The position numbers and the translations under genes are program-made. 51,243 bases of DNA from a virus (taxonomy: Duplodnaviria; Caudoviricetes), in IMG/VR virus record IMGVR_UViG_3300030012_001662, positions 1 through 51,243 of that record; one strand, given 5' to 3'. The notes beneath the pieces were generated by a model, which was not told where the DNA came from, made no database searches, and saw nothing but the letters and a program-made list of their open reading frames with translations. This document shows positions 10,290 through 28,245 of this stretch, in pieces (within the stretch, counting starts at the first letter, position 1; the number at the start of each line of letters is the position of its first letter).

Positions 10290-10523
10290 TCACTCCATAT
10301 TCTTGTCGTAACACATTGTATTTATTATATAATCTGATGGCATTTCAAATTGGTCATAAATGCTATCTACAACATACCTTTCGTATCTTGGTATATTTAT
10401 TTCACAATCAAATTTACTGGGATATTTTATTTGTGCTTCATGCATGCCACATAAAACCTCTCCACCGTCATAACGATTTCCCTCAATCCATATAATACAA
10501 GTCATAACAATCATGGAAAACAT
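10290..10523 (-). CDS. Hypothetical protein
   Basis: 77-aa Cys-containing ORF in the operon. Confidence 0.6.
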   Translation of the reverse strand: MFSMIVMTCIIWIEGNRYDGGEVLCGMHEAQIKYPSKFDCEINIPRYERYVVDSIYDQFEMPSDYIINTMCYDKNME

Positions 10524-11300: not shown

Positions 11301-11310
11301 TTAAATTATC

Positions 11311-11532
11311 TTATAATAATGTATATTGGTCATCTATAATCCTTGTCATTTTCTTTTCTTCTTTACTGTGTTTTAATTTATAAACATCAGCGACACTTAA
11401 TTCGTTTGCTCTTAATTTCTCATAGAGTCTTAAATCAAGAACCTTAACCTCAGACATTAAAGCCTCGTATGCTTCATCTACTACTTTTTGTTGTTCTGGT
11501 GTTAATCCATTATCTATAAAAGTATTATCCAT
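11311..11532 (-). CDS. Hypothetical protein
   Basis: Probable start MDNTF overlapping the primase-helicase stop. Confidence 0.6.
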   Translation of the reverse strand: MDNTFIDNGLTPEQQKVVDEAYEALMSEVKVLDLRLYEKLRANELSVADVYKLKHSKEEKKMTRIIDDQYTLL

Positions 11533-13264: not shown

Positions 13265-13282
13265 TATTGTTTTCTCCCTTTG

Positions 13283-13924: not shown

Positions 13925-14244
13925 AATATCTCCGTTATAACAATAGGTGGTTTATATGTAGCTAATATTTTTTTTCTTAATATATAATCTCTTGTCTTTG
14001 TAACCTTTGACTTAACATCTTCTATAATTTCTATACCTTTATTATTAATATATTTGAAATCAGCAGTATATCTGCCTATCTTTACACCATTAACAATTAA
14101 CGGAAAGACAGGGTGTACTTCTAAATTTGTTATATATTTTTTTATTTGCATCTGTTCTAAAATTAAATATCTATTCAGTTCTTTTTTTGAATCAAACCTT
14201 ATTCCTTTGTAATATTGCTTTTTTGCGTTGTATTTGTTCGGCAT
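13921..14244 (-). CDS. DUF1064 family PD-(D/E)xK endonuclease
   Basis: NKYNAK, FDSKKE, YTADF, EDVK motifs. Confidence 0.9.
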   Translation of the reverse strand: MPNKYNAKKQYYKGIRFDSKKELNRYLILEQMQIKKYITNLEVHPVFPLIVNGVKIGRYTADFKYINNKGIEIIEDVKSKVTKTRDYILRKKILATYKPPIVITEIL

Positions 14245-14422
14245 ATAGGTCTGTCCCTGTTACTTGATTATCAGTAAATATAAACAATTTTTCTGCCTCA
14301 GCCCATCTAGGCATTCTATCGCCTTTCGCCCAAGACTCAATATTTCTATAATGAGTATCTAATTCTTTAGCGAAACTCTTATAGTTATATCCATTCATTT
14401 TTATATAGTCTTTTAATCTCAT
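14192..14422 (-). CDS. Cro/XRE-like HTH regulator
   Basis: MRLKDYI...FAKEL...W..G.RMP...T...VT..DL pattern; first gene of the leftward operon. Confidence 0.8.
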   Translation of the reverse strand: MRLKDYIKMNGYNYKSFAKELDTHYRNIESWAKGDRMPRWAEAEKLFIFTDNQVTGTDLYAEQIQRKKAILQRNKV

Positions 14423-14468
14423 AACTCCCTTTTAAAATAAAAAAATAATTATGTAAACACAAAAAAGG

Positions 14469-14496
14469 TTTACTTCTTAAAATAAATTGGTAGTAT
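14469..14496 (+). promoter_or_regulatory. sigma70-like promoter of the recombination operon
   Basis: TTTACT-N16-TAGTAT, matches the early promoter family. Confidence 0.55.
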
Positions 14497-14503
14497 GTAA
14501 TTC

Positions 14504-14569
14504 TCGGTAACTCCTTACCGACTTGCGATGATGGTCTGGTTTTTTTAAAATGATTTTCCAGACCGTCAT
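14504..14569 (+). ncRNA. Structured 5' leader or candidate sRNA with two hairpins
   Basis: TCGGTAA-CTCC-TTACCGA and ATGATGGTCTGG...CCAGACCGTCAT. Confidence 0.45.
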
Positions 14570-14599
14570 TTAAACGAAGAACGAAGAATTGAGGTAAAG

Positions 14600-15370
14600 A
14601 TGAACAGAAACAATCCATTTGCCATACATGGTATTACTCATTTATCACACAGTTCAATTAATACTTGGTTAACAGACCCAGCAAGATTTATTGCAGATAA
14701 ATTATTTGGTGTAAGAGATAAAGGCTCTGCATCAATGCACAGAGGTACTGCAACAGAATTTGGTCTTGCACAAAAGTATACAGAAGAGGCATGGGAAATT
14801 GACCTAGAGGTTGTCGGCACAAAATACCAACAATTGTGTCAAGATGATTTAATTGATGTTGATGATGAAAGAAGAATAAAAGAAAAAGAAAACTTAAAAG
14901 AATATTGTAATATTCTAAATAAACATTTTGATTATAAAAATTTGGTAGATTACCAAAATAAAATTGAAATAAATTTTGAAGATTTACCAGTCCCATTTAT
15001 TGGTTACATAGATTTTGTATTTGAAGACACAATTATTGATTTAAAAACTACTGGTAGAATGCCATCAAAGCCTACAGATGCCAATAAAAGACAAATGGCA
15101 TTATATCATATGGCTTACCCACAACATCAATGTAACGTCGTTTATGCCTCACCAAAAGCATATTCTACATTCTTAATAGATGACAACGAAATAAAATACC
15201 ATCAAAAGCAAATTAAATCTGTTGCTTTTGGGTTAATGAAATTCCTTGCAATCAGTGATGATAAAGAGGAATTGGCTTCAATAATCCACCCTAATTATGA
15301 TTCGTGGACTTGGAGCGACTATTATAAAGAGCAATCAAGCAAAAAAATAACACAATGGAGTTATAAATGA
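14600..15370 (+). CDS. PD-(D/E)xK exonuclease (Cas4/RecB-like)
   Basis: HLSHSSIN, GYIDF, IDLKTT, QMALY motifs. Confidence 0.88.
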   Translation: MNRNNPFAIHGITHLSHSSINTWLTDPARFIADKLFGVRDKGSASMHRGTATEFGLAQKYTEEAWEIDLEVVGTKYQQLCQDDLIDVDDERRIKEKENLKEYCNILNKHFDYKNLVDYQNKIEINFEDLPVPFIGYIDFVFEDTIIDLKTTGRMPSKPTDANKRQMALYHMAYPQHQCNVVYASPKAYSTFLIDDNEIKYHQKQIKSVAFGLMKFLAISDDKEELASIIHPNYDSWTWSDYYKEQSSKKITQWSYK

Positions 15371-15930
15371 ACCAAGAATCAAATAAAAAGATAACCACAG
15401 AAACTGGTCGTGTTGCACAACCAGTTCAAATAAAGCCAAAAGTTTCAACTACAAAAACATTGGTTGAGGCCTTAAATAAATTTCAAGAATTAAATATTAC
15501 TGCACTAAAAGGTACACATAATACTTATTTTAAGAGTACATATGCAGATTTAACATCTGTTATAGATGCCTGTAATCAGGGTGCTCAATATGGCCTGTGT
15601 TTTACACAACAAGTTTATTATAAAAATCTAATACTTGATAAACAGATAACTGATACATTTAAAGATGGTTCTACCAAAAATACTGGTGGTCAAACAGTTA
15701 CAAGAGATATATGGGTTAAAACAACCATTTATCATACTATAGACGAAAAGACTATTGAATGTGATGTGCCAGTTTTAATTAATCATGTTGAAAAAGATAA
15801 CCCACAAAAAATGGGTTCTGCAATAACCTATGCCAAAAGATATGGTTTACAGGCATTGTTTGGTCTTGGACAAGATGATGATGCAAATTCAGCATCAGGT
15901 GTAACCGATAAGGGAGGAAAAAATGGATAA
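15367..15930 (+). CDS. erf: ERF family single-strand annealing protein
   Basis: YADL, PQKMGSAITYAKRYGL..LFG...DDDAN motifs. Confidence 0.93.
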   Translation: MNQESNKKITTETGRVAQPVQIKPKVSTTKTLVEALNKFQELNITALKGTHNTYFKSTYADLTSVIDACNQGAQYGLCFTQQVYYKNLILDKQITDTFKDGSTKNTGGQTVTRDIWVKTTIYHTIDEKTIECDVPVLINHVEKDNPQKMGSAITYAKRYGLQALFGLGQDDDANSASGVTDKGGKNG

Positions 15931-16378
15931 TACAAAAACATATGACCAAACCAATCGTGGAGCTTTATTTAATATACCTAAAGGCACAAGTCCCGATGGC
16001 GAGAAAAAAGAACCCGAATGGCAACTTATTCAACAAGGTAAATTAAATATCAATGGCGACCAACTTAGAGTTGTTGGTATTAAACGTCTAAATCAAAAAG
16101 GCGAAGAAATTGTTGAATTATATAGAGCAATGGGAACCTTAAAAAAAGCAGACCAAATCAATGAAAAAGACCCATATGCAAAAGGTGTTGTAAATGCTTT
16201 GGTTGATAAAGGTGCCATGATTATATCTGCATGGAAAGAACAAAGCGAAAGAGGTAATAAATATATCTCTTTAAAACTAAGAGATTTTGCAGACAGTACT
16301 GGTTATGAACCAAAAGAACAAAAACAACATTCTAATGATAAAGACGATACATCTGCATTAGAAGATATTGATTGGTAA
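15923..16378 (+). CDS. Putative single-stranded DNA-binding protein
   Basis: TNRGALF, ISAW, KYISL motifs; acidic aromatic C-terminus; follows erf. Confidence 0.65.
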   Translation: MDNTKTYDQTNRGALFNIPKGTSPDGEKKEPEWQLIQQGKLNINGDQLRVVGIKRLNQKGEEIVELYRAMGTLKKADQINEKDPYAKGVVNALVDKGAMIISAWKEQSERGNKYISLKLRDFADSTGYEPKEQKQHSNDKDDTSALEDIDW

Positions 16379-16391
16379 AAGGGAGAAAGCA

Positions 16392-16607
16392 ATGAAAAAA
16401 CAATCACAATATGACAACATTAAGGCACATCTTGAAGATGGAAAAACATTACAACCATTACAGGCATTATCTGAATATGGTTGTTATAGATTATCGGCAG
16501 TAATTCATAAGTTAAGGCGAGATGGTTACCCTATTGAAACAAATATGAAAACCAATAGAGGCAAAACATATGCTGAATATGTGTTAACTTACGATAAAAC
16601 TAATTAA
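16392..16607 (+). CDS. Winged-helix DNA-binding protein
   Basis: IKAHL..G......AL..YGCYRLSAVI..LR..GY.I pattern. Confidence 0.8.
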   Translation: MKKQSQYDNIKAHLEDGKTLQPLQALSEYGCYRLSAVIHKLRRDGYPIETNMKTNRGKTYAEYVLTYDKTN

Positions 16608-16933
16608 TGTCTAATTTCAAAATCAAAAGAATAAAAGACAAAAAGTTTTTAGATTTTGTATCTAAAAAAGAATGTTGTTTATCTGCTCATTCTTCTTACC
16701 CTTGTCATGCAAATGTTCAAGCACATCATTTGTTAAAACCTTATGACGGAGTAAGGGGAATGGGAATTAGGGCAAGTGATAATAATGCAGTACCACTTTG
16801 TTATTATCATCATGCCTTACTACATGATTCTCATGGAAACGAAGATATGTTTTGGCAGTCTTTTGATTTGTCAAAAGATTATGGTAGAGAAGTGGCAAAA
16901 AAATATTGGGAGATGTATAATGCAAAAAATTGA
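16607..16933 (+). CDS. DUF968 / HNH-like zinc-binding putative nuclease
   Basis: CC..C...AHH...GMG...D..AVPLC..HH..LH pattern. Confidence 0.8.
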   Translation: MSNFKIKRIKDKKFLDFVSKKECCLSAHSSYPCHANVQAHHLLKPYDGVRGMGIRASDNNAVPLCYYHHALLHDSHGNEDMFWQSFDLSKDYGREVAKKYWEMYNAKN

Positions 16934-17249
16934 TGAAGAAGAAATACATAAGGCAGTTGCTTGGTTACGTGATTCTGCAGGATTATGTGCTGAGGCAAAA
17001 GCAACAAGAATTTACCTTGAGGCATTTTCAAAATCATTAAAAGCAATTCTTATGAGTAAACATCTTGAACTTCCTATTTCTGCTCAAGAGAGAGAAGCAT
17101 ATGCAAGTCAAGAATATCAAGACCATTTAAAAGCAGTAAAGATTGCTATTGAACGTGACGAAAAAAATAGATACCGTAGAGAAACTGCTTTGGTCAAAAT
17201 AGAGACTTGGAGAACACAAGAAGCCAATCTTAGAGCTATCAAACTTTAA
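16920..17249 (+). CDS. Conserved helical phage protein
   Basis: AQEREAYAS..Y and IETWRT..AN motifs; start MQKID. Confidence 0.7.
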   Translation: MQKIDEEEIHKAVAWLRDSAGLCAEAKATRIYLEAFSKSLKAILMSKHLELPISAQEREAYASQEYQDHLKAVKIAIERDEKNRYRRETALVKIETWRTQEANLRAIKL

Positions 17250-17335
17250 ACGTCGTACCAGTTGGTATATGGTCTAGGGTATGATTATACAAAAAAATTG
17301 ATTTCAGCAGTTTTTAACTCTAGTAAGGGTTGTAG

Positions 17336-17581
17336 ATGTCAACAAAAAAAGACAAAAATGACGAAGAATTTTTTGAAGATTGTCCAAAAGCTGTTGCTGA
17401 ATACGAATCTGAGGTTGGCATTCGCCGAGTAAAGAGACTTCCATATTACGAATATTTCATAAATTCGCTAAATACAAGTGATGATTTTGATGTAAGAATA
17501 CCTACTGGTGTTACTGCCGATTACAGAGGATATTCTGATTTAGGTTATGTAAAAAAAGTTTTTATAAATATAAAAAAATAG
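17336..17581 (+). CDS. Hypothetical protein
   Basis: 81-aa ORF. Confidence 0.55.
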   Translation: MSTKKDKNDEEFFEDCPKAVAEYESEVGIRRVKRLPYYEYFINSLNTSDDFDVRIPTGVTADYRGYSDLGYVKKVFINIKK

Positions 17582-17582
17582 G

Positions 17583-17645
17583 TTGACTGGTACTAGTTAC
17601 AATTTACCAATAGAATCATTCATTAATATTTCATGGGAGAAAACA
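17583..17645 (+). promoter_or_regulatory. Early promoter plus GGGAGAAAACA start motif
   Basis: TTGACT ... ATAGAATCAT, similar to the 45225 promoter; -10 element imperfect. Confidence 0.55.
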
Positions 17646-17646
17646 G

Positions 17647-17829
17647 ATGAATGATACAAAAACAAATGAGATTTATCCTCATAATCAACCACTAAATACT
17701 TATCTTAAAGTAACATATCCAGATGGTGATATGGAATATTGGACATTAGATAATTCTGTAGAAGAATTAGAACGTCTTCAAAAATTATATAAAGGTAAGA
17801 TAACAACCAAAATTGTGAAAGGATATTAA
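17647..17829 (+). CDS. Hypothetical early protein
   Basis: ORF directly after the start motif. Confidence 0.7.
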   Translation: MNDTKTNEIYPHNQPLNTYLKVTYPDGDMEYWTLDNSVEELERLQKLYKGKITTKIVKGY

Positions 17830-17830
17830 A

Positions 17831-18022
17831 ATGAACGATATTCTTCACGATATAGAAAAACTAACCGATATAAAAAAATCCGTTGGTTTATTTTCAGACT
17901 CAACAATTCAATCTCTTATCCAAGATTTGATAAATGAAAAACAATCAATCGTTAAAGATTTTGAAAAAGAGATACCCTCACATATTCAAGAATTAAATAA
18001 AAAATTGAAAGGAGAAATCTAA
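17831..18022 (+). CDS. Hypothetical protein
   Basis: Coupled ORF. Confidence 0.65.
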   Translation: MNDILHDIEKLTDIKKSVGLFSDSTIQSLIQDLINEKQSIVKDFEKEIPSHIQELNKKLKGEI

Positions 18023-18231
18023 TGGGTATGAGTTCTTATATACTAGATTTAGAAGATAAATTTATTGATGTAGAGGTGGCAGAGATTATTAAAGACTCTG
18101 ATACCTTACAAGAGGCACAATTAAGAGCAGAAGATAAAAGGGTAATGAATTATAATTTTATTCCCTCTACTGGTCTTGATGAAAAAGTAAAAGAAATGTG
18201 GGATTTATATTGGGAGAAATACAATGTCTAG
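18022..18231 (+). CDS. Hypothetical protein
   Basis: Coupled ORF with GGAG RBS. Confidence 0.7.
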   Translation: MGMSSYILDLEDKFIDVEVAEIIKDSDTLQEAQLRAEDKRVMNYNFIPSTGLDEKVKEMWDLYWEKYNV

Positions 18232-19471
18232 ACCTATACTTTGTTCAGAAATTTTATCAGGGTTTACACAACCTAAAAGAGCAATCGCCCTCTACCAAGG
18301 GGGCAAGATTGCCGATGACATGATAAGAAAGAAACAAAAAGCATTTGTAGATGCTCAGAAATTTGTTCTTACACCTAAACTGGTGCAAAATGCCTTTGAT
18401 ATTTCATTAAAGAAACCATCAATTTTATTAGAGATGTTAGAAGACATGAAAATGCCTTTTGATAATCTTTGGATTGAATGGGACGAAGAAGCAAGACAGA
18501 ACTACATGAAAGATTATTGGGATAAGACACCAATGAAATTTAAATTAAAAGACGAGACACCTGATAGGGTTGGTTACCATATATCAAAATTTACTGATGT
18601 ATTAGATGATAGTTATTTTTTATATGAGTCTTGGTTCTTTATAGATGACGAAGATGTGGCATCTGATTTTGGTAGAATTATAAATAAAAAATTCTATTCT
18701 CCAACAATGTGCCAAATTATCCATGAAGAATTACCAAATTTTGATGATGAACTTGCAAAGGTTGAACTTCTTGATGAATTACCTAAAGGTAGTAGAATTG
18801 CAAATCCCGAAGAATTTAAGGTCAAGGCATTGGCAATAGGTTCTAAATTCTTAGGTGGTTGGTATTTTATGGAATATTGTCCTGAGAAATTTATTCTAAA
18901 TACCAAAATGACATCACATGATGACCAATATAATCATTTGATGAAAATGGTAAAATACAATAAATCTCACGAATTTAATTGTCTTAAAGAAATATGTTAC
19001 AGATTATCTATTGCACAATCTGCATCAATGCATTGGTCTGTACCATCTTGGAAATTTAAAGAGGGATATACAACCGAAGAGATACAGGCACACGAAAGCA
19101 ATCTTATTACCTCAACAGAGGGCGATACAAGGTTTCTAATATCTTTATTCTCTTTATTAAATCAAAGTTTACATACTCAAGAGGTTGTGCAACCAAATGA
19201 TAAAATTATCCATACGAAATTAGGCAAGAGAGTACCAAGAAACGAATATAAAGTACTTGATATAGATTTATCTGCCAATAAGGTTAGAAAGGTCTATAAG
19301 GCAAGATTTCAAGGTAAAGGTAATCCAAAGAGACAACACACACGACGTGGACACTACCGAAGACTACGAGATATTGATGGTACTATTAAAAGAAAGATAT
19401 GGATTAAATCTTGTATCGCAGGAAATGCAGACCTTGGGATTATTGAAAAAGATTATAATTTAAAATCTTAA
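18224..19471 (+). CDS. Early protein with C-terminal HxRRGHxR motif
   Basis: KRQHTRRGHYRR...IWIK...GN motif of unknown function. Confidence 0.75.
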   Translation: MSRPILCSEILSGFTQPKRAIALYQGGKIADDMIRKKQKAFVDAQKFVLTPKLVQNAFDISLKKPSILLEMLEDMKMPFDNLWIEWDEEARQNYMKDYWDKTPMKFKLKDETPDRVGYHISKFTDVLDDSYFLYESWFFIDDEDVASDFGRIINKKFYSPTMCQIIHEELPNFDDELAKVELLDELPKGSRIANPEEFKVKALAIGSKFLGGWYFMEYCPEKFILNTKMTSHDDQYNHLMKMVKYNKSHEFNCLKEICYRLSIAQSASMHWSVPSWKFKEGYTTEEIQAHESNLITSTEGDTRFLISLFSLLNQSLHTQEVVQPNDKIIHTKLGKRVPRNEYKVLDIDLSANKVRKVYKARFQGKGNPKRQHTRRGHYRRLRDIDGTIKRKIWIKSCIAGNADLGIIEKDYNLKS

Positions 19472-19514
19472 AATAAAATATTTCTATAATTGTAAAAAAA
19501 ATACCTTTTATGTG

Positions 19515-19577
19515 TTGACTTTTATAATTATAGAAATTACTATGTAACTATCATTAAATTTTTTATGGGAGAAAACA
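19515..19577 (+). promoter_or_regulatory. Early promoter plus start motif
   Basis: TTGACT-N17-TACTAT; GGGAGAAAACA at 19567. Confidence 0.7.
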
Positions 19578-19580
19578 AAA

Positions 19581-20132
19581 ATGATAAAATACACTAAAGA
19601 CCAACTAGAACTTAAATCTTATATAGAAAAGAAAAATAAGGAACACATGGATATGGTTAGGGCAAATACAGACCCTAGAATTATGTACTGTGAGGTTCCA
19701 GAGGTAATACCTTTTTCTGAATTAGACAAATTGGCAGAATATGGCATTACAACAATTATCGATTATAAGAAAGACGAATGTGTTACCATGATTTCTGAAC
19801 TTGGTAAATCTGCCACTGGTTCAAGAGTTAGGGTTGACCCAGACGAACATACCTTAGAAGAACTAGAAATAATGGTTGAATACTGGGGTAAAGAATCAAC
19901 AAAGGCTGTTGAAGAACAAAATATTGCAGATAAAAGAAAGGTTAAAGAATTTGCAAAAAGAATTAAAGATACCTGTAAATTAGGTGCCAATAATTATAGA
20001 ACTGCAATTAGATGGATTTTACAGGCAGAGGGTATAGAAAATGACGAAATGTACCAAGGTGGTTCAATTTGTTATGACCTAAACCTTCCATATCGACATA
20101 AAAAACTATTTCAAACAGCAGGGGTGGCATAA
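19581..20132 (+). CDS. Hypothetical early protein
   Basis: 183-aa ORF with promoter and RBS. Confidence 0.75.
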   Translation: MIKYTKDQLELKSYIEKKNKEHMDMVRANTDPRIMYCEVPEVIPFSELDKLAEYGITTIIDYKKDECVTMISELGKSATGSRVRVDPDEHTLEELEIMVEYWGKESTKAVEEQNIADKRKVKEFAKRIKDTCKLGANNYRTAIRWILQAEGIENDEMYQGGSICYDLNLPYRHKKLFQTAGVA

Positions 20133-20150
20133 AGCCACCTCTTTTAATTT
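20121..20150 (+). terminator. Rho-independent terminator
   Basis: GGGGTGGC-ATAAA-GCCACCTC followed by TTTTAATTT. Confidence 0.6.
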
Positions 20151-20170
20151 AACTTAAAAGGGAGAAACAA

Positions 20171-21073
20171 ATGTTAAATACTAAATTATTTGAAGAAGAA
20201 ATGGAAAAAATAAACTTCTCAATAGATATTCAAGATATTGAGGGAATACCAACAGAAATGGGTAGAAAATTGGTTAGAACCGATACAGATACCCCACTTG
20301 GTATTATTAAATCTAAATATAAACCAATCTTACATACTCAGGCATTTCAAGGTGCTTTACAAGAAATGAAGAATGGAGGTCTTACCTTAGAAAATGCAGA
20401 GGTTTCTATAGACTCTTATGAAAATGGTGCCATGGCAAAGATGGAGGTATTGTTACCAGAAAAAACCACTCAGATTGGCGACCATAATCTTTCATTAAAA
20501 TATGTTGCTAGAAACTCTTATAATGGTAGATGGAAATTTCAATCTTTCTTTGGTTGGTTAAATCATGTTTGTTTTAATACATTGGTTACTGGTCAAAAAT
20601 TGGCATACACATCTAATAGACATACCAAATCTTTTGATATTGACCAATCTAATAAGAAGATTGTAAATGCTGTAAAAGCAGTTACCGATGAAACTGAGAG
20701 ATTTAAGAAATGGTGGGATACATCTGTTGAAGATGCACAGATAAAGAAATTATTTGAAAACACCATTGCGAAACAAAATCTTTCAAAAGGTAGCAGAATG
20801 GCAGGTGTATCTGAAACTAACCAAAAACAATTAGCCATTTTAATGGGGTTATATAACGAAGAGGTAACCCAAATACATGGTAAGGGTGATTATGGTAGGA
20901 ATGATGCAAAAGGCTCTCTATGGTGTGCATATCAATCAGCAACTGCATGGTCTACACATCTTACAGATATTAATAGAAGCGATACAAAAAAATATCTTGT
21001 TCAAGTAGACAGACAGAAATTGGTATCAGAAATGGTTGAAACCAAGAACTGGAAGGAGCTAGAAGATGCTTAA
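20171..21073 (+). CDS. DUF932 family protein
   Basis: LGII..KY, NSYNG, VCFN.L, RHT, SLW.AYQ..T.W.TH motifs. Confidence 0.85.
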   Translation: MLNTKLFEEEMEKINFSIDIQDIEGIPTEMGRKLVRTDTDTPLGIIKSKYKPILHTQAFQGALQEMKNGGLTLENAEVSIDSYENGAMAKMEVLLPEKTTQIGDHNLSLKYVARNSYNGRWKFQSFFGWLNHVCFNTLVTGQKLAYTSNRHTKSFDIDQSNKKIVNAVKAVTDETERFKKWWDTSVEDAQIKKLFENTIAKQNLSKGSRMAGVSETNQKQLAILMGLYNEEVTQIHGKGDYGRNDAKGSLWCAYQSATAWSTHLTDINRSDTKKYLVQVDRQKLVSEMVETKNWKELEDA

Positions 21074-21338
21074 ACGATATAAAAAGAACTTCTTGTATAT
21101 TATATTAACTGGTTTGGTTACTGCTTGTAGCAGTAGCCAACCTTCAAACAACATCAAAATGGTATACAATAAAGAAATGTTCCAGATGAATAGACAAGAA
21201 GTTATAAATGCCATAGAAGATTGTCGTTCTGTAAAATTAAGACCAGTACTTTATCATGGTCGTGTTAAGGTAACAGACCGATATGTACCAATTGTTGTAG
21301 AGGTGCAATGTGCTCCTACATACAAAGATTATAACTAA
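21066..21338 (+). CDS. Putative lipoprotein
   Basis: Basic N-terminus, hydrophobic stretch, lipobox VTA-C. Confidence 0.7.
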   Translation: MLKRYKKNFLYIILTGLVTACSSSQPSNNIKMVYNKEMFQMNRQEVINAIEDCRSVKLRPVLYHGRVKVTDRYVPIVVEVQCAPTYKDYN

Positions 21339-21344
21339 AAAGAA

Positions 21345-21382
21345 TTGGGGTGGTAAATGAACCGAAAAGAAAACCACCCCAA
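21345..21382. terminator. GC-rich stem-loop (possible terminator)
   Basis: TTGGGGTGGT...ACCACCCCAA, 10-bp stem with a large loop. Confidence 0.45.
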
Positions 21383-21414
21383 AACAGATGCAATATAAAT
21401 ATCGCACAAATTGG

Positions 21415-21476
21415 TTTACTTTACTACTAATTTTGATACTCTGTAATTATAAAACAACGTTTTTTGGGAGAAAACA
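21415..21476 (+). promoter_or_regulatory. Early promoter plus start motif
   Basis: TTTACT-N16-TACTCT; GGGAGAAAACA at 21466. Confidence 0.55.
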
Positions 21477-21701
21477 ATGACTTATCAAGACTACGAAAAT
21501 GAATTACTACAAAATATAAATCATTATACTGTTACTCAGCATCTTGGCAGAGGTCAATATAATAAGATTGATTGTACTGATTTAGAACACGCAAATAATA
21601 TTAAACAACAAATAATAGATAAGAATAAAAGTGCTAGGGTTGCAATCTATGCAGTTTGTAAACCAGAAGCAAGACCTCTTGTTAATATAATTGTGGGGTA
21701 A
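21477..21701 (+). CDS. Hypothetical early protein
   Basis: ORF directly after the start motif. Confidence 0.75.
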   Translation: MTYQDYENELLQNINHYTVTQHLGRGQYNKIDCTDLEHANNIKQQIIDKNKSARVAIYAVCKPEARPLVNIIVG

Positions 21702-21705
21702 TATT

Positions 21706-21870
21706 ATGGAAAACAGATATTTTGTTAAAATTCGTTTATTCGATAATCTACCAGATATGCCAGACCATGGTAAATATGTAACAATCATGGTTGAGGCAAA
21801 TTCTACAGACGAATTAGAAATGTTAATTGACGATAAACATAAAATAACAATGTGTGAACTTGTTGACTAG
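21706..21870 (+). CDS. Hypothetical protein, 54 aa (MENRYFVK...)
   Basis: Read manually; fills the gap between neighbouring ORFs. Confidence 0.65.
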   Translation: MENRYFVKIRLFDNLPDMPDHGKYVTIMVEANSTDELEMLIDDKHKITMCELVD

Positions 21871-21878
21871 GAGGTAAT

Positions 21879-22130
21879 ATGGCAATTATGAATATTATTA
21901 AGGGAAAAAATACCATTTATGATTTTTTATTAGATGCCTATAATAATTGTGATTATAAAAGAGGTTATCACATTATTAAACTAATGATTAAATCAAAAAC
22001 AAATTTAGATAACTTTGTAAGTTTTTTAGCAAAAAATAGTACAACAGAATTACATAAACATTCTTGTTATCATCAGTTCTTTAGAAATGTTTTTGCAAAA
22101 TTTATTAGACAATGTAGAATATCAAAATAA
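21879..22130 (+). CDS. Hypothetical protein
   Basis: GGAGG RBS. Confidence 0.65.
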   Translation: MAIMNIIKGKNTIYDFLLDAYNNCDYKRGYHIIKLMIKSKTNLDNFVSFLAKNSTTELHKHSCYHQFFRNVFAKFIRQCRISK

Positions 22131-22217
22131 TTTAGCTTGGGTCGCCTTGGAAAATATTGTTTTCTCCCAGCCCCACCCCATATTTGGTAAGATAAGCTAG
22201 GCGAATAGTCTTACCAT
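22131..22217. ncRNA. Candidate structured RNA carrying an orphan copy of the early start motif
   Basis: GC-rich spacer between convergent operons; TGGTAAGAT/GTCTTACCA stem; loop complementary to TAGCTT and TCGCC; TGTTTTCTCCC at 22158-22168. Confidence 0.5.
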
Positions 22218-22418
22218 TCATTTTCCCAACAAATGCTCTACTCTTTTTTTTAAGTTTTCTACCATTGTAAAATTAGGTGGTTTCATTTTACTTTTTTCTG
22301 CAATGCTTAATTCATTAATGATATAATAATCACATAGAACCTCTACTAACTTAAGTTCTTTTGTATTCAATTTCATTTTTTTAAGTTGATTTAAAGATAT
22401 AAGTATTTTTTCTGGCAT
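22218..22418 (-). CDS. Hypothetical protein
   Basis: Last ORF of the late operon. Confidence 0.55.
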   Translation of the reverse strand: MPEKILISLNQLKKMKLNTKELKLVEVLCDYYIINELSIAEKSKMKPPNFTMVENLKKRVEHLLGK

Positions 22419-23170
22419 TATTTACTAATACTTCTAAGACTTTCCATGACCTTATCTATATCAGGTTCTTCGCCATTAGGGTCATAAATACATTTATATT
22501 TAATAGGACACCAAGTTTCTATCATCATTGTAAAAGTTTTATTACCACCCTCATAAATACAGGCTCTTTTATCTGTGTATTTTGACGTAATTCTTTTTTT
22601 CAATCTACAGGTTGTATATTTCTTTTCAATTATCTTGCCTTGCCACACCTTTTGTTTATACGTATAATCTTTTGGTGCATTATACATCTTACCATCAGCA
22701 AATGCCCTAACACCTAAAACAAGCAATAATGTTCCAATACCTATACCAAAAAATATAATCGCACCCCATTTCAGCATATCCATGATTTCGTCTTGTTGTC
22801 TTTTTGCTTTTATTCTTGCTTGTTTTTGTGCCTCTTTGGCTTCATTAATTCTGTTTGCTCTTTCTGAAAGTATTTCGTCCCATGCAGTAGGTCCAAACCT
22901 AAGATTTATAATTGTTTTTAATTCTTGTCTTTTTTCTTCTAGTAATTTTCTATCTATAAAATCTGTCGCACTAGATTCAATGCCAAACTGTTCTTTTAAA
23001 CCAATGCCTTTGCCTTGGTTTTTATTCATTTGAGCCTCGCCCTCAAAAAAACCATCTATTTGTTTGGCAATGCCTTTTATGTCATTTACTGTACTGATAT
23101 TTTCTTTGATAAAATCTACAGATTTTTTAACTAATGCAATGCCTGTGAGTGTGGCTGTTACAAATTCCAT
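22418..23170 (-). CDS. Membrane-anchored coiled-coil protein with Cys-rich C-terminal domain
   Basis: TM segment WGAIIFFGIGIGTLLLVLGV; TCRL..ACIY..CP..YKC. Confidence 0.7.
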   Translation of the reverse strand: MEFVTATLTGIALVKKSVDFIKENISTVNDIKGIAKQIDGFFEGEAQMNKNQGKGIGLKEQFGIESSATDFIDRKLLEEKRQELKTIINLRFGPTAWDEILSERANRINEAKEAQKQARIKAKRQQDEIMDMLKWGAIIFFGIGIGTLLLVLGVRAFADGKMYNAPKDYTYKQKVWQGKIIEKKYTTCRLKKRITSKYTDKRACIYEGGNKTFTMMIETWCPIKYKCIYDPNGEEPDIDKVMESLRSISK

Positions 23171-23173
23171 AGA

Positions 23174-23341
23174 TTACCTCAATAGCAAACCTAATAATAA
23201 AACTATTGCAGTCCCCGAAGTTGCTATCATTATGTGTTCAATACGTTTTATACGTAATATTGTTTCTATCCATCGTTCCTCTGTAACAGCAATATGTTTT
23301 TCTAATGTTACATGGATTTCTTGTACTGATGGTTTCTTCAT
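23174..23341 (-). CDS. Small coiled-coil plus C-terminal TM protein, 55 aa
   Basis: Read manually: MKKPSVQEIH...TAIVLLLGLLLR. Confidence 0.7.
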   Translation of the reverse strand: MKKPSVQEIHVTLEKHIAVTEERWIETILRIKRIEHIMIATSGTAIVLLLGLLLR

Positions 23342-25344
23342 GTCATATCAACACTATTTAGTATTTTCATTCTTGCAGACATAGGTAGATTACCTACAAA
23401 TTCTGATACATCTTTATCTTCTTCTGATGCAAATGCACTCATATTTAATCGTATATTAGGGTCAACAACGTTTGGTACTTGTGTAGCAGTAATTGTCGTA
23501 CCACCTGTTATGATAGTATTTGCCAAATTTTGCAGTTTATTTAACATTGCATTTCTTGATTCTGCATTTGTAAAGGCATCTCTTATAACGTCTGCATCTT
23601 CTTCAATTAAAGTTTCTGCCAATTGACGCAATTGTTTATCGTTCATTTGTCTTGATAAATCAGGTATTAAATTTCTAATTGCTCTAACTGCGGCAATTGG
23701 GTTATAAAAATTAACAGCCTCCATTACATCTGCACCAATTTGTGTAATGCTTGTAGGTTTAACATCTTGTTTCCTACCCTCTGTTATTGCTGTTTGTGAA
23801 CCTCTTAAAACAATATTTCGTGTATCTACAGAATCTATGGCTTTTGATGCACCTGTAAGTATATTTTCAAGTTCGTCATCTGGTATAATTCTTTGTAAAA
23901 TTCTTCTTTCTTTACTCTCTGGATTATTTAAACGTCTCACAAACGCACCTTTACCACCTCTTTGGTCAAGAATTGACCTTATGTTTGATGCGATACCTGC
24001 TCGATAAGATTTTATTAAATCGTTATCTTTTGTGTTTAAAATTCTATTAATGTCTATTTCTGCTTGGTCTGCATTCATACCAAGTAATTTTGTACCTTCT
24101 AAAAAACTGTCTTTACTATCGAATATTTTTTTATATCTGGCTCTAACTGTAGCCAGTTCAGGTGATACCTCGTCTATTTTATTTTTTAATACATTTGATA
24201 AATTTTTAACACCTGTAGCCAATGTCATTTTTTTATCTTTTTGCATTAATCCTTGACCAAAATCTCTAACAATTCTGTAAGCATTTTCCGCTTCTTCTAA
24301 CGATAAACTTCTTGTTAAACTGATAGAGCCATCTTTATTTTTTTTAAATACGGCTGGTAAACCTTGCATTTTATTTATAAGGTTTGCATCTTTTGTAAGG
24401 TTTTTAGGGTCTATTCTATTTACAACATCTAAAACTAAATTATCTATTTCTGGGTTATTTAGATTTTTATTTGCATCAAATATTCTTTTATATGCCTTAC
24501 TTTCTGCTGATTTAAGTGCTTTTTCTGATTGTTGTATGGCTTGTAAAATATTACCTAATGGTTTGTCTTTTGCTAAAGATTTTTGTAAATCTTCAGTTAC
24601 CTTTTTGGGCGCTTCGGTTGCTCTTTTTTCTAAAGATTCTCTTAATATCGGACCTGTTACAGATGATTTGGCATATAATGCCCTAATATTCTCTGCCATA
24701 TCTTTATTTATTTCTGGTATTATTTTACCTTGTTGCACAGCCTCAATGATATCATCGGTTGATACATTTGCTTTACCTGCGATTTCAATAATCTTATCTT
24801 CTACATTTTTATTAAGGTTGCCCATAATTGAACCATAGGTTTTTTCAAACCCTTTTTTGGCAATACCTGCAATACCTTGACCTAATTTAGCGAAAAGAGG
24901 TCCTGCAACTGTAGATATACCAGTTTCTACTGCAACCTCTAGAGGTTCTATTGTTTCATCTTGTGCGCCATATGATGCGACTAATCCCTGACCACCACTC
25001 ATTAATGCAACTCTACCCATAGTCAAAGGTACACTTGCTCCTCCAGTAAATGGCAATGCCAATAATGCAGGTGCCATAGCTCCACCAAATTCATATTTTA
25101 AAGAACCATCTTTTTCTCTTGCTTGTGCTAAAATGTTTCTTTCTAGTTGTACGATTTCGTCATACGATTTGTCTGAAAGTAAAGATTTTATTTTTGCAAT
25201 CGCCTCATCGCTAAAATTTAGTAATGCACCTTGTGCAATAAGTCGTATTTTTTCAGACGCAGTTAAACCTGCATCTTGGTTCTCAAGTTCTGTTTCTCTA
25301 ATCTTACCTAATATATCTTTTAATTCATCATCTATCTTACTCAT
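23338..25344 (-). CDS. Putative DNA ejection / internal virion protein
   Basis: 668-aa helical protein with Gly/Ala hydrophobic segments; third of the ejection-protein trio. Confidence 0.7.
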   Translation of the reverse strand: MSKIDDELKDILGKIRETELENQDAGLTASEKIRLIAQGALLNFSDEAIAKIKSLLSDKSYDEIVQLERNILAQAREKDGSLKYEFGGAMAPALLALPFTGGASVPLTMGRVALMSGGQGLVASYGAQDETIEPLEVAVETGISTVAGPLFAKLGQGIAGIAKKGFEKTYGSIMGNLNKNVEDKIIEIAGKANVSTDDIIEAVQQGKIIPEINKDMAENIRALYAKSSVTGPILRESLEKRATEAPKKVTEDLQKSLAKDKPLGNILQAIQQSEKALKSAESKAYKRIFDANKNLNNPEIDNLVLDVVNRIDPKNLTKDANLINKMQGLPAVFKKNKDGSISLTRSLSLEEAENAYRIVRDFGQGLMQKDKKMTLATGVKNLSNVLKNKIDEVSPELATVRARYKKIFDSKDSFLEGTKLLGMNADQAEIDINRILNTKDNDLIKSYRAGIASNIRSILDQRGGKGAFVRRLNNPESKERRILQRIIPDDELENILTGASKAIDSVDTRNIVLRGSQTAITEGRKQDVKPTSITQIGADVMEAVNFYNPIAAVRAIRNLIPDLSRQMNDKQLRQLAETLIEEDADVIRDAFTNAESRNAMLNKLQNLANTIITGGTTITATQVPNVVDPNIRLNMSAFASEEDKDVSEFVGNLPMSARMKILNSVDMT

Positions 25345-25348
25345 ATCT

Positions 25349-26704
25349 CTACCTTACTTTTGGTTTTAGAGTGAAACGTTTTGCCTGAACATCTTTCAAT
25401 ATATCTAATATGGTTCTTTTAAGTGTTTCATTATCTTTAACATTTTCGCCACCAAGCATATATTCAATATCATCAATGGTATAATTATTTTCTAAGAAAA
25501 ATTTTTCAAACGCTTGTTTATTGGTCTTTTTTGGTAATATTATTTTATATGTATCTGTAGCAAGGGTGTATTGTTTTGGTGATTTTATGTAAGATTGAAT
25601 TACAGCCTTATCTAAACCAAGAACATTACCAACTTTAATTTCTTCTTCATTTTGTGTTTCTAAATTTGTTGTTGCATTTTTATATTGCGCATATGCCAAA
25701 TCTCTAAATGAACGTCTTGTTAAATCTGAGAGTATACCACCATTTTTGATGTAATTTGCTGTTTGAACTAAGAAATCTGCAGGTCCACCAACCTTTTTGG
25801 CAACTTCAAATTCACCTTCTCTAACAACAGAACGAGGGTCTAACATTTTCATAAAACTAAATATAAGCGCTAAATCACCAGCACCCGGTCTATCTAATTC
25901 GTAGACCTGATTGTATGCAGTAAACACATTATCCATATGACCTAATTTATCGTTATAATCTTTAACAAATTGTTTACCTTGGTATTTTTCTTTTACTTTT
26001 AAAAAATTTTCTTTTTGTTTTAAATTTAGAGGCTTGAATACAACCTGTTGATTTGGTTTTGCATCATCTTTCTTTTCAAAAATATCAACCTTTGAAGAAC
26101 CCTCGCCAATACTTGATTGGTCTGTCTTATCGTAGTTTATAAAATTACCACTATTGTCTTCAACTCTCTTGCCTTTATTTGGTCCAGTTTTGTAATATAA
26201 ATTACCATCAAACTGACCTGTGTATGTTTTTATTTCTGAATCTTTTGGTGCTGAATAAGTAACAATATTTCTTTTAATTGTATCATCTAGGTTATTTAAT
26301 TCTTTATTGGTAAAAAATTTTGTATCGCCTTTTTTATAATCTACACCATCAATATTGGTTGGTTTTGTAAATGTATATAATTTTTCTGCCTTGGGTTTAC
26401 CTAATTGTGTTGCCAAAGAAACCAATGTTGTGGCTCTTGTTAAATCTGATTTTTCTTGGTCTCTTTTATCTTGTAAATATGTTTTGGCAACTGAACCTAA
26501 TGCCTCGGTACCCGCACCTACCACTGTTGCTCCCGGTCTTGAAGATGCTGTGCCTAATTGTGTGAATCCTATCAAAGCTAATAACGCAGGGTCTATTGGT
26601 TCTCGTCTTGGTGCTAATGTATTAATTAATCCACCTAATGCACCACCTTGTAGGTCTTGTTGATTTGCCGCTCCTAATGCTTTTATTAGTTCTTCTGCGG
26701 TCAT
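25349..26704 (-). CDS. Putative DNA ejection / internal virion protein
   Basis: GDLALIFSFMKMLDPRSVVREGEF motif. Confidence 0.7.
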   Translation of the reverse strand: MTAEELIKALGAANQQDLQGGALGGLINTLAPRREPIDPALLALIGFTQLGTASSRPGATVVGAGTEALGSVAKTYLQDKRDQEKSDLTRATTLVSLATQLGKPKAEKLYTFTKPTNIDGVDYKKGDTKFFTNKELNNLDDTIKRNIVTYSAPKDSEIKTYTGQFDGNLYYKTGPNKGKRVEDNSGNFINYDKTDQSSIGEGSSKVDIFEKKDDAKPNQQVVFKPLNLKQKENFLKVKEKYQGKQFVKDYNDKLGHMDNVFTAYNQVYELDRPGAGDLALIFSFMKMLDPRSVVREGEFEVAKKVGGPADFLVQTANYIKNGGILSDLTRRSFRDLAYAQYKNATTNLETQNEEEIKVGNVLGLDKAVIQSYIKSPKQYTLATDTYKIILPKKTNKQAFEKFFLENNYTIDDIEYMLGGENVKDNETLKRTILDILKDVQAKRFTLKPKVR

Positions 26705-26706
26705 TA

Positions 26707-27810
26707 TTATCTCCTACTTAATGCATAAAGACTAGCCAACGAACCTAATCCACCTAGTGTTTGTCCATATATACTTGGCTGTTGCATAAACTGGTTTCCT
26801 GTTGCCTGTTGTCTAGTTAGTGTTTCATATGGTATGCCTTGTAACGCACCTAAGGCAAAATTTAACATTTCAAATGGGAATTGTTGTTGTGCCAAAAAGT
26901 CTTGATATGCCATATCTAAGGCCCTTTGGTCTAATTCTCTTTCAGCCTGACCTGCTGTAATCAATCCTGAGGCGGCTTGTTCAGATAATCCCTGTGCTAA
27001 CGGTGCTAATCCACTTAATGTTTCAGATGCTCTTAATCTACTAGCCTCGTCTGTTTCAAATCCAGCTAATCTTGCTTGTTCATCGGTTGTAAATCCTGCA
27101 CGTCTTTCGCCTTCACCAGCAAATCTTGCCGCTCTTTCAGCATCAAATCTGCCTGCATCAAATACTCTATCTGTATCAAATCTTTGTGACGCAAATTGTA
27201 ACGCCTCTCGTCCTGCTTGTTTTCTTAAATCAGAACCTGCTTTTGCCATTTCTGCATCTGTTAATGCCTCTCTAACTCCTAATCTTGAGCCACCAAAAGC
27301 ACCTGCCCTTATTGCATCTGCCGCATTTTGTCTTTGTTGTAATTGTCTTTGCCTATTTAATTCATCTATTGCTGGGTCAATAGAGGTTTGGAATATATCT
27401 TGATATTGACCTGCTCTTTCTACATCAAAATCAGGCGATACAAATGCCTCTCCAACCAGCGCATCTGTATCTGTAGGTGTAAATCTACCTGCTGTAAAAC
27501 CGCCACCTAATGTTCCTGCCATAGTGGTTGCATCATCTAATATTGTTTGAAAAGGTTCTGTTCCACTTGCTAATTGGTCTAAACCTGCTCTTTCTCTTTC
27601 TGTCATTCTTAATGGATTGCCTTCGGCATCTGTACCAAAGGTTGCTATTCTTTCACCTTGAAACTGTGGAAACGGTGATTTTGAAAGTTCTCTTGCCTGT
27701 TCGTACAATTCTTTACCACCTGCGGCAACAAATCCCGGTAATGTTGTTCCACCTACAGTTTCTTTATAATCTGGTAATTGAATTGGTTGATTGGTACAAA
27801 TTGAACCCAT
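26707..27810 (-). CDS. Putative DNA pilot / ejection protein
   Basis: AGAFGGSR motif, Gln/Ala-rich, Gly-rich hydrophobic C-terminus; N-terminus MGSICT. Confidence 0.75.
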   Translation of the reverse strand: MGSICTNQPIQLPDYKETVGGTTLPGFVAAGGKELYEQARELSKSPFPQFQGERIATFGTDAEGNPLRMTERERAGLDQLASGTEPFQTILDDATTMAGTLGGGFTAGRFTPTDTDALVGEAFVSPDFDVERAGQYQDIFQTSIDPAIDELNRQRQLQQRQNAADAIRAGAFGGSRLGVREALTDAEMAKAGSDLRKQAGREALQFASQRFDTDRVFDAGRFDAERAARFAGEGERRAGFTTDEQARLAGFETDEASRLRASETLSGLAPLAQGLSEQAASGLITAGQAERELDQRALDMAYQDFLAQQQFPFEMLNFALGALQGIPYETLTRQQATGNQFMQQPSIYGQTLGGLGSLASLYALSRR

Positions 27811-28245
27811 TTAGGCCTCCACGTATATTGAGCCTGCATTTACAAAGCCCAATCTCTTATAAAAATTATCTTTTCTTTCTACATCACCAGAAAAGACATG
27901 TCCTAATCTTAATTTCATTTTAGCATCTTTTGCTGTTTTAATATAGGTTTGTATTAATTTTTTTGCCACATCACTTTTTCTTTGGTCTTTAAATACATAA
28001 AACCAAACATCTCCTACATATTTTTCTTCACTCCACCAATCAGCACAAATTTGTCCAGCAATAGAACCTTGTATTTTGTTATCTTTAATAGAAACAAATA
28101 CCAAACCATTATGCACTAACTCATTGATTTTACTAATTAGTTTCATTGAGCTTATTTTTGGCACGTTAATCTCTGTCTCCTTGTGCATGGTATCTAGCAT
28201 TATAGTTAATGCTGATATATCTAAAACTGTGGCTCGACGTATCAT
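27811..28245 (-). CDS. GNAT family acyltransferase
   Basis: MIRRAT..D, WFYV...QRKS.VAKKL, FYKRLGF motifs. Confidence 0.88.
   Translation of the reverse strand: MIRRATVLDISALTIMLDTMHKETEINVPKISSMKLISKINELVHNGLVFVSIKDNKIQGSIAGQICADWWSEEKYVGDVWFYVFKDQRKSDVAKKLIQTYIKTAKDAKMKLRLGHVFSGDVERKDNFYKRLGFVNAGSIYVEA

Follow-up and report, generated by a model that had tools for sequence, protein, structure and literature searches.

Judged by comparison with its relatives, the 87-nt spacer that forms the entire gap between two converging stop codons of an uncultured phage (positions 22131-22217) is a conserved structured RNA, in which a hairpin (P1) and a pseudoknot are supported by covariation. Part of the spacer is the exact complement of the motif that marks the starts of the early genes of the same phage. 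Our reading, to which we assign a probability of about 0.5, is that it encodes a self-masked small RNA acting in trans, which would pair over 12-15 nt with 8 of the 79 start regions and repress the early genes. Through complementarity to a start signal that they share, these genes would probably be switched off together.

Genome Setting

The window, by which we mean the whole stretch of DNA analyzed, has 51,243 bases with 34% G+C and is a complete-looking IMG/VR virus record. Its genes are arranged in alternating strand blocks, and the spacer lies where a + strand block converges on a - strand block that contains the structural genes (Table 1). With 42% G+C against the 34% of the window the spacer is GC-rich, as an earlier note on this DNA had said. 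By large terminase the closest isolates are the Roseobacter phages CRP-901 and CRP-902 (74% amino-acid identity), for which G+C contents of 40-49% are given in PMC10149686. The converging junction of CRP-901 is without a spacer, and among GenBank phages we found no near or distant DNA match to positions 20500-24500 of the window or to positions 6700-7250 of the related locus L092. No integrase was seen among the ORFs scanned for families, which cover part of the genome.

Table 1. Positions of the gene blocks, the parts of the element and the predicted target sites in the window
Feature	Position	Strand	Remarks
Gene block	146-14618	-	terminase, primase-helicase, HTH protein
Gene block	14600-22130	+	PD-(D/E)XK nuclease, ERF, DUF932, small ORFs
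Gene block	22218-44915	-	tail and other structural genes
Gene block	45288-46556	+	four small ORFs
Gene block	46598-51145	-	
83-aa ORF, last of + block	21879-22130	+	no family match; stop 7 nt ahead of element
66-aa ORF, last of converging - block	22218-22418	-	no family match; stop abuts P1
Promoter-like pair	22093-22120	+	TTGCAA 22093-22098, 16 nt, TAGAAT 22115-22120; 9/12 in consensus scan
Structured RNA core	22137-22217	+	covariance model R1: 95.8 bits, E 5e-18 in window
P3 5' strand UGGG	22138-22141	+	pairs with CCCA 22166-22169; complementary in all variants, nearly invariant
Pseudoknot 5' strand UCGCCU	22142-22147	+	partner AGGCGA in P1 loop
P2 hairpin	22150-22164	+	GAAAA 22150-22154, loop, UUUUC 22160-22164; from helix parse
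Anti-RBS core UGUUUUCUCCCA	22158-22169	+	complement of (U)GGGAGAAAACA; the "orphan" motif as read on -
C-rich linker	22170-22184	+	CCAC invariant; alignments A4 and A8
P1 hairpin	22185-22216	+	8 bp, 22185-22192 with 22209-22216; closing U.G 22193/22208
Pseudoknot 3' strand AGGCGA in P1 loop	22199-22204	+	covariation with UCGCCU
Predicted target: motif RBS of 60-aa early ORF	17635-17645	+	12 nt complementary; TTGACT-type promoter upstream
Predicted target: motif RBS of 183-aa ORF	19567-19577	+	13 nt complementary
Predicted target: motif RBS of 74-aa ORF	21466-21476	+	14 nt complementary
Predicted target: motif RBS of 90-aa ORF	45277-45287	+	14 nt complementary
Predicted target: motif RBS of 74-aa ORF	45591-45601	+	15 nt complementary
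Predicted target: motif RBS of 104-aa ORF	45960-45970	+	13 nt complementary
Predicted target: motif RBS of 85-aa ORF	46287-46297	+	12 nt complementary
Predicted target: motif RBS of primase-helicase (Toprim + DnaB-like, 579 aa)	13268-13278	-	14 nt complementary

The Early-Gene Start Motif and Its Complement in the Spacer

The sequence GGGAGAAAACA occurs nine times in the window against 0.07 expected, and none of 100 shuffled sequences reached nine. Eight of the nine copies are followed within 0-4 nt by ATG, all at early or replication genes. The sole copy without an ATG lies on the - strand at 22158-22168, within the spacer. Eleven starts, each in an early, replication, recombination or small-ORF block, are preceded by a shorter core, GGGAGAAA, which is found at none of the starts of structural genes, where the Shine-Dalgarno contexts are ordinary and varied. 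Near-identical promoters (TTGACW, 16-17 nt, TACTAT) stand about 25-30 nt upstream of five of the motif copies, and the motif is thus part of a standard early leader. These leader cassettes, near-identical in promoter and leader alike, are repeated at least five times.

On its + strand the spacer carries AATATTGTTTTCTCCCA at 22153-22169, the core of which, TGTTTTCTCCC (22158-22168), is the reverse complement of GGGAGAAAACA. The earlier note had described this exact complement of the start motif as the only copy lacking an ATG, and had given pairing lengths of 15 nt at 45591 and 14 nt at 21466, 45277 and the primase-helicase start; both statements stood when the copies and lengths were recounted. 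The contiguous complementarity of the + strand element is 12-15 nt in 8 of the 79 start regions and at most 9 nt in the other 71. At the eight sites the Shine-Dalgarno sequence falls within the complementary stretch, which often reaches the AU of the start codon as well. Extended complementarity of this kind to the initiation regions of its targets is one mark of a trans-acting small RNA that blocks ribosome binding. Targets were ranked by contiguous complementarity because ranking by RNAduplex over whole start regions was too noisy. The calculated energies of the duplexes between element and target are -19 to -23 kcal/mol, and in a nested model, with the pseudoknot disregarded, opening the anti-RBS costs about 5.9 kcal/mol.

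Conservation of the Element among Relatives

Relatives were collected by means of a 250-aa late protein and a 300-aa DUF932 protein, giving 120 viral and 80 metagenome loci. A covariance model (R1) built from nine copies of the element finds it in 7 of 80, 14 of 41 and 19 of 91 sources searched, one weak match per search (E 0.24-0.9) being left out of these counts. The analysis was made on 22 distinct variants, taken from viral and metagenome contigs of relatives; L090 (the same as L091 but for its 3' flank), L191 (identical to L094), L206 (5' end cut) and exact duplicates were excluded from the counts.

The element is retained where the 66-aa ORF is missing (L013 and L017) and where the 83-aa ORF is missing (L092 and L211), and close relatives differ by 1-nt insertions or deletions inside it, the indels not being multiples of three. 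It thus stands as an independent non-coding unit, and the comparison indicates that it is under selection. A small peptide on either strand was ruled out by the 1-nt indels; an ATG follows the motif in only two lineages. In L119 and L092 a 24-aa hydrophobic ORF adjoins the element, as it might in a type I toxin-antitoxin pair, and this candidate was rejected because neither the window nor groups 1 and 2 have the ORF next to the element.

At least one motif RBS is present in all 21 of the element-bearing loci examined. The same is true of 8 of 100 element-free loci, five of which have two or more, all of these ending before the junction. In four relatives (L098, L100, L101 and L104) the converging genes abut and the element is absent; an RBS of the GGGAGAAA type is missing from all four, and L098, scanned singly, has no GGGAGA-type site.

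Rfam 15 gave no match at gathering score in the window and six relatives. At E values up to 10 it gave chance-level matches only, the best on the element being ilvH with 15 bits against the 55.1 needed, and a tRNA and tmRNA search found nothing at the element. Pattern scans of viral contigs, using the G-rich core or the conserved flank, returned known contigs and apparent chance matches in unrelated contexts. The corresponding scan of 185,579 species genomes gave two matches, weak by R1 (15.8 bits or none), with no prophage copy and no clue to the host.

Fold of the Element and Its Covariation

Read on the + strand the element consists of the P3 5' strand, the pseudoknot 5' strand, the P2 hairpin, the P3 3' strand, the C-rich linker and the P1 hairpin, in that order. 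The motif copy provides one strand of both P3 and P2, and its partner is a split complementary copy with the pseudoknot strand between the two halves. The anti-RBS is consequently not free but paired inside the RNA in the predicted fold, a point of difference from the earlier note. P1 has 3 G:C among its eight pairs and is A/U-rich, with a loop of 14 nt.

A strand-neutral parse of helices found P1, the pseudoknot of its loop with a segment of 5-7 nt, P2 and P3 in every variant. Because MAFFT and first-round covariance-model alignments contained register shifts, counts were made on trimmed hairpin and pseudoknot segments. P1 is present in six different Watson-Crick forms across the variants. 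Both sides have changed in 6 of its 7 pairs, and its covariation score is 0.876 compared with 0.266 on shuffling, none of 500 shuffles giving a value as high. Sliding the partner strand by 1-3 columns reduces the pairing to 12-49%. The pseudoknot occurs in five forms, UCGCCU/AGGCGA, CUCCG/CGGAG, CUUCGC/GCGAAG, UCUUCAU/AUGAAGA and CUCUAU/AUAGAG, with double-sided changes in 4 of 6 pairs and a covariation score that none of 500 shuffles reached. When partner strands were swapped over six lineages the cognate score was attained in 2 of 720 arrangements for P1 and in 6 of 720 for the pseudoknot, in each case by exchange between lineages whose helices are the same. For P2 and P3, which are complementary in every variant, covariation offers no support, the core pairs being constant throughout; outside the core, P2 has loop-side extensions that vary by lineage with retention of complementarity.

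The folding energy of the single sequence is ordinary (z = -0.87 on the + strand and -1.39 on the - strand), and so the case for structure rests on the comparison of relatives. Two proposals of the earlier note can be placed in this fold. Its 9-bp hairpin is recovered as P1, 22185-22193 pairing with 22208-22216 through eight Watson-Crick pairs and one U.G. Of the two pseudoknot pairings suggested for the hairpin loop, TCGCC with GGCGA is strongly borne out by covariation. Pairing of TAGCTT with AAGCTA is not, with 62.9% of cells paired against a shuffled mean of 62.7%, a level equaled in 283 of 500 shuffles.

An additional 5' hairpin, P0, is seen in L119, L091 and L193. Its register is ambiguous in the A/T-rich sequence, and it is clear only in L193, where it has 18 bp; we therefore gave it no weight.

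In two conserved stretches, the CCAC of the linker and the GAUAAG of the P1 loop, conservation has no explanation in pairing. They would suit a sensor, or a site for a protein or ligand acting in the manner of a riboswitch or by titrating a protein, in which the helix of anti-RBS and RBS-like strands was a switching platform or structural core; the connection of a pseudoknot to a Shine-Dalgarno/anti-Shine-Dalgarno helix is in keeping with such a role. We nevertheless regard this as quite improbable. A riboswitch or cis-acting operator is directly followed by the ORF that it regulates on the same strand, whereas here a conserved ORF follows on neither strand, and the short frames after the motif vary in frame and length. 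No Rfam riboswitch or other family matches the element at E values up to 10, and sensing alone does not explain a helix that follows the phage's own RBS variant, as described below.

The Motif Copy Compared with the RBS of Each Phage

Within the motif copy, columns 35-43 and 46 of alignment A8 are invariant in all 22 variants. The first 8 nt of the motif, GGGAGAAA, are the same in the element copy and in the RBSs, and the following 3 nt are specific to the lineage and mostly uniform within it. The tail ACA is found in 8 of 12 motif RBSs of the window, in 4 of 6 of G005 and in 6 of 9 of G004, and each of these has ACA in the element copy. In G001 four of five RBSs end in GAA or GAT and the copy in GAG, L194 and L195 being alike, so that an RBS of GGGAGAAAGA(A/T) goes with an element copy of GGGAGAAAGAG. 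G002, and likewise L190, has ATT in two of three RBSs and in the copy; here the RBS is GGGAGAAAATT and the copy identical to it. In this ATT lineage the internal partner has also changed (AGAAAAUU with AAUUUUCU), giving a three-way agreement.

The agreement is not perfect. G003 has ATT in two of three RBSs and AAA in the copy, while L189 has TTT in the one RBS seen and AAT in the copy; in the lineage of L094 and L189 the match between copy and RBS is 8-9 nt. Three motif states (ACA, GA- and ATT) are common to copy and RBS. The cognate match of copy and RBS is better than all but 4 of 720 permutations, although permutation figures are not true probabilities, because the lineages are related and few, with about three motif states. 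The comparison is suggestive of a motif copy that tracks the RBS variant of each phage. Conservation of the spacer and its covariation with the start motif in relatives, on which the earlier note had made its proposal depend, are thus both found.

Strand, Promoter and Transcript Ends

Single-sided changes in a helix can indicate which strand is the functional one. In P1 and the pseudoknot there are four independent changes of this kind (in P1 of L092, of L201 and of the L026 type and in the pseudoknot of the L091 type), and all four give G.U on the + strand and A.C on the - strand. Of 15 distinct rows, 11 close P1 with U.G and 3 with C:G on the + strand, and one leaves this position unpaired. 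Of the 105 P1 cells, 99.0% pair when read on the + strand, compared with 85.7% on the - strand (1/105 against 15/105 unpaired). An inserted hairpin in L194 adds one further G.U on the + strand. The wobble pairs of P2 are mixed and depend on the register; in the column register L198 and the L091 type have G.U on the - strand, L092 and the outer pair on the + strand.

The 3' end of the 83-aa ORF contains a promoter-like pair on the + strand (Table 1). The arrangement TTGCAA-16-TA(G/A)AAT is kept in groups 1 and 2 while the intervening sequence changes. In L211, which is without the 83-aa ORF, the pair falls in non-coding DNA, with 7 nt between it and the first helix, and in the L119 clade TTGACT-16-TATAAG stands at the start of a 165-nt non-coding gap that contains the element. 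None was seen upstream of the element in the L092 lineage, and no promoter-like conservation was seen on the - strand. The element is probably transcribed from the + strand pair, as a sigma-70-type promoter of its own. The earlier note had made the RNA the 3' end of the early + strand transcript; with an apparent promoter of its own it need not be that. Both the strand and the promoter are supported by these comparisons, and we consider it likely that the functional RNA is that of the + strand. A + strand transcript carrying an anti-start signal is the most likely form, because the single-sided changes give G.U on the + strand and the -35/-10 pair stands upstream on the same strand. The earlier note had offered both an anti-RBS on the + strand and a decoy on the - strand; the wobble pairs and the conserved promoter-like pair upstream favor the former.

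For the - strand decoy, the functional RNA would be the 3' untranslated end of the late operon, presenting a contiguous copy of the early RBS in a hairpin as a sponge for whatever recognizes the motif, for instance the 30S subunit, an RNA-binding protein of phage or host, an RNase or the RNA of the + strand. In every lineage the element begins directly after the last stop codon of the late block, so late transcripts should run into it. The contiguous 11-mer is indeed on the - strand, and tracking of the motif would suit a mimic as well as an antisense RNA. The P2 wobbles of the L091 type and L198 in one register, and the slightly better single-sequence fold (z = -1.39), point the same way. Against this, every single-sided change of P1 and the pseudoknot is A.C on the - strand, with 15 rather than 1 of the 105 P1 cells unpaired; the conserved -35/-10 pair faces the opposite way, with no promoter-like conservation on the - strand itself; and no protein that might read the motif was identified among the ORFs scanned. 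We judge the decoy to be unlikely.

Hairpins in one DNA strand could also account for some of these features, since in single-stranded DNA they tolerate G.T wobbles, and the phage has primase-helicase and ERF-type recombination genes. The element would then act at the level of DNA, as a single-strand origin, a signal for primase or packaging, or a protein operator. This leaves the match to the RBS motif, its tracking and the promoter-like pair unexplained, and a covarying pseudoknot is typical of RNA; we regard a DNA element as very improbable.

The position of the element, filling the whole gap between converging stop codons, raises the question of whether it is mainly a structure at the 3' ends of both operons that serves for termination or processing or as a barrier to exonucleases. 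It has a hairpin at its 3' side on the + strand, followed in several relatives by U-rich sequence, and its likeness to the RBS might have arisen by descent or homogenization of the early leader cassettes, whose near-identical repeats, at least five in number, could drive exchange. Intrinsic terminators have a G+C-rich stem, a short loop and a U-tract, whereas P1 is A/U-rich with a 14-nt pseudoknotted loop; the U-tracts after P1 vary among relatives, and no clear terminator lies behind it. A scan of 17000-27000 listed six terminator-like sites, including a bidirectional terminator at 20120-20142, and the element was not among them. Moreover, some relatives do without any spacer at the junction, the 11-15 nt shared are too short for ordinary homologous exchange while the internal partner strands change in step, and the promoter-like pair is directed into the element. 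We therefore think it unlikely that the element is primarily a 3'-end structure.

In one RNA library (0.05 of sampled words) a 2123-nt contig of a relative covers 20905-21946 and 22064-22450, crossing the element. Contigs from this source, mapped to 17500-27000, tell neither the strand nor the ends nor the level of a transcript, and DNA may be present in the library; they were kept out of the evidence.

A Possible Mechanism

In our preferred reading, that of a + strand small RNA acting on early mRNAs, the spacer would encode an RNA of about 95-100 nt (roughly 22127-22225; about 145-150 nt in some relatives), probably transcribed from the pair TTGCAA-16-TAGAAT within the final codons of the ORF upstream. 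It would adopt a compact fold in which the P1 loop knots with a segment near the 5' end. This knotted segment would separate UGGG from GAAAA, two strands that together mimic the early start signal. Their pairing with the anti-RBS core UGUUUUCUCCCA, forming P3 and P2, would leave the anti-RBS masked by a split mimic of the RBS.

On meeting early mRNAs, whose short leaders carry (U)GGGAGAAAACA(AU), the RNA could exchange its interrupted internal pairing of 9 bp for a continuous duplex of 12-15 bp extending over the Shine-Dalgarno sequence and in many cases over the start codon. Loading of ribosomes would be blocked on at least eight early or replication genes at once, while structural genes would escape by virtue of their other Shine-Dalgarno contexts. 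The outcome would be a shut-off or dampening of the early genes, and UUUUCUCCCA of the element would be expected to change along with the early RBS motif. The pseudoknot might gate the unmasking, and late readthrough transcripts, being fully complementary, may remove the RNA. The comparisons show the conserved structure, the complementarity and the tracking of the motif; pairing in vivo, repression, its timing, a 3' end belonging to the RNA itself and an early-to-late switch are what we infer from them.

There is a more speculative version, which we consider doubtful, in which a master anti-RBS, gated by its pseudoknot, sets the time at which the whole early regulon with its one standardized leader is shut off, and the states ACA, GA- and ATT are lineage codes for an RNA-based immunity or incompatibility. 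If this were true, a resident or co-infecting phage would silence the early genes of relatives with the same code and not those of relatives with another, among abundant marine phages.

Discussion: Comparison with Known Systems

The timing of phage gene expression is usually credited to proteins, i.e., sigma factors, repressors, RNA polymerases and nucleases, and to our knowledge each of the known phage antisense RNAs acts on a single gene. From the loci compared here, a widespread group of uncultured marine phages appears to have one common early leader and one matching RNA, which if confirmed would be a one-to-many RNA switch for the developmental program of a phage. The case is unusually easy to test, because sequence defines the RNA, its targets and the compensatory variants that occur in nature. 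Whatever its role, the element adds a well-supported pseudoknotted family that is absent from Rfam, and it shows that repeated "RBS motifs" in phage genomes can be read as regulons.

Hairpins that sequester the Shine-Dalgarno sequence in cis are familiar from RNA thermometers and the expression platforms of riboswitches. As in these, a U- and C-rich strand of the element pairs with a GGGAG-type sequence within one RNA. In contrast to them it has no cis-controlled ORF on either strand, and it is a separate unit at a converging junction.

Among phage RNAs, the c4 immunity RNA of the temperate phages P1 and P7 covers a ribosome binding site and controls one gene, and in related phages c4 and its target sites have diverged in concert. 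P22 sar, lambda OOP and PaQ are phage antisense regulators described as having a single gene target each (PMC5415839). Like the proposed RNA, all of these are short phage-encoded RNAs that base pair with phage mRNAs, sar and c4 covering the RBS, and the joint change of c4 and its target resembles the motif tracking seen here. However, sar and OOP are encoded opposite their single target, while our element lies 0.7 to about 24 kb from eight dispersed predicted targets. A cis-antisense RNA overlaps its target, and none of the motif sites (13.3, 17.6, 19.6, 21.5 and 45.3-46.3 kb) overlaps 22131-22217; the only transcript that might overlap a + strand RNA is readthrough of the late operon. Where c4 controls a single gene, the predicted target of the element is a whole class of early transcription units. 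Neither sar, OOP, PaQ nor c4 is related to it in sequence or through Rfam.

A catalog of 8495 candidate structured RNAs has been drawn up from the intergenic regions of IMG/VR by covariation (PMC10690425), with the same data source and the same type of evidence from phage intergenic regions as we have used. Our element may be one of its unnamed DNAVirus_X entries; in the main text of PMC10690425 the terms "Shine-Dalgarno," "ribosome binding" and "sRNA" do not occur. In the literature that we searched, no phage RNA is described as acting on an RBS common to the early genes.

There are parallels in bacteria as well. RsaE/RoxS are small RNAs with multiple targets, whose C-rich motifs bind Shine-Dalgarno regions. 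Another multi-target bacterial RNA is 6C, in which a C-rich motif binds the Shine-Dalgarno regions of host genes (PMC6486639). The common principle is one RNA that directs C-rich sequence against the G-rich ribosome sites of many mRNAs. The bacterial RNAs use short exposed C-rich loops and pair imperfectly with host genes, whereas the element has 12-15 nt of perfect complementarity to the standardized leaders of the phage itself, with a seed that is masked in a pseudoknotted fold.

Early promoters, leaders and candidate terminators

Five early promoters of the window form a family of near-identical sequences, with a common layout in which an A/T-rich upstream block is followed by TTGACW, a spacer of 16-17 nt and a TACTAT-like hexamer. 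Downstream of each lies a leader of ~25-30 nt, the 3′ end of which comprises UUUCAU and the RBS motif, i.e., the start signal common to the early and replication genes. Three promoters of the family have the upstream block AAAGAACC(T)TTTTTTGTG in common, and this could be an operator. Two G+C-rich hairpins with T-tracts within the early blocks look like true intrinsic terminators; for that at 20120-20142 this reading holds on either strand.

Locations of early promoters, terminator candidates and a small ORF
Feature	Location	Strand	Remarks
Early promoter	window 17565-17634		near-identical family member
Early promoter	window 19497-19566		near-identical family member
Early promoter	window 21396-21465		near-identical family member; TTTACT in place of TTGACW
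Early promoter	window 45207-45276		near-identical family member
Early promoter	window 45890-45959		near-identical family member
Intrinsic terminator candidate	window 20120-20142		G+C-rich hairpin with T-tract, within early block
Intrinsic terminator candidate	window 45566-45582		G+C-rich hairpin with T-tract, within early block
24-aa hydrophobic ORF, conserved	L119 5637-5711	-	MHNEDFIHIVLGIWGYAFLFGYFF in L119; also in L092

The structured element and its flanks in relatives

The pairing scheme of the structured RNA leaves two conserved stretches unaccounted for. None of the four helices (P1, the pseudoknot, P2 and P3) accounts for the invariant CCAC of the C-rich linker (window 22170-22184) or for a GAUAAG-like stretch that is conserved within the loop of P1 (window 22194-22207).

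In the related loci L119 (5488-5541), L193, L091 and L094, ~55 nt of extra non-coding DNA separates the promoter-like pair of hexamers from the core of the element. An inverted repeat, AGATATAATT...AATTATATCT, lies within this stretch in these lineages, its register being clear only in L193; the extra DNA may belong to a longer RNA, as its 5′ hairpin, or serve as a protein operator. In some relatives the end of the small hydrophobic ORF adjoins the element on the late strand, and it may belong to the lysis or late module and encode a small membrane protein.

A single metagenome contig of 138,904 nt (L195, L205 and L260) contains the region of the DUF932 gene three times, each time with a different version of the element. 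Related phages have probably been concatenated, or joined into a chimera, in the assembly of this contig.

A tRNA call and the record ends

ARAGORN called a tRNA-Asn (anticodon ATT) at 28047-28125 on the - strand, within a 144-aa ORF at 27811-28245; the call is probably a false positive. The ends of the record (1-972 and 50262-51243) repeat one another over ~980 nt with 93.5% identity, and encode the same protein twice, in versions of 242 and 245 aa. Such ends suggest a genome that is circularly permuted and whose assembly spans two population variants, rather than a true terminal repeat.
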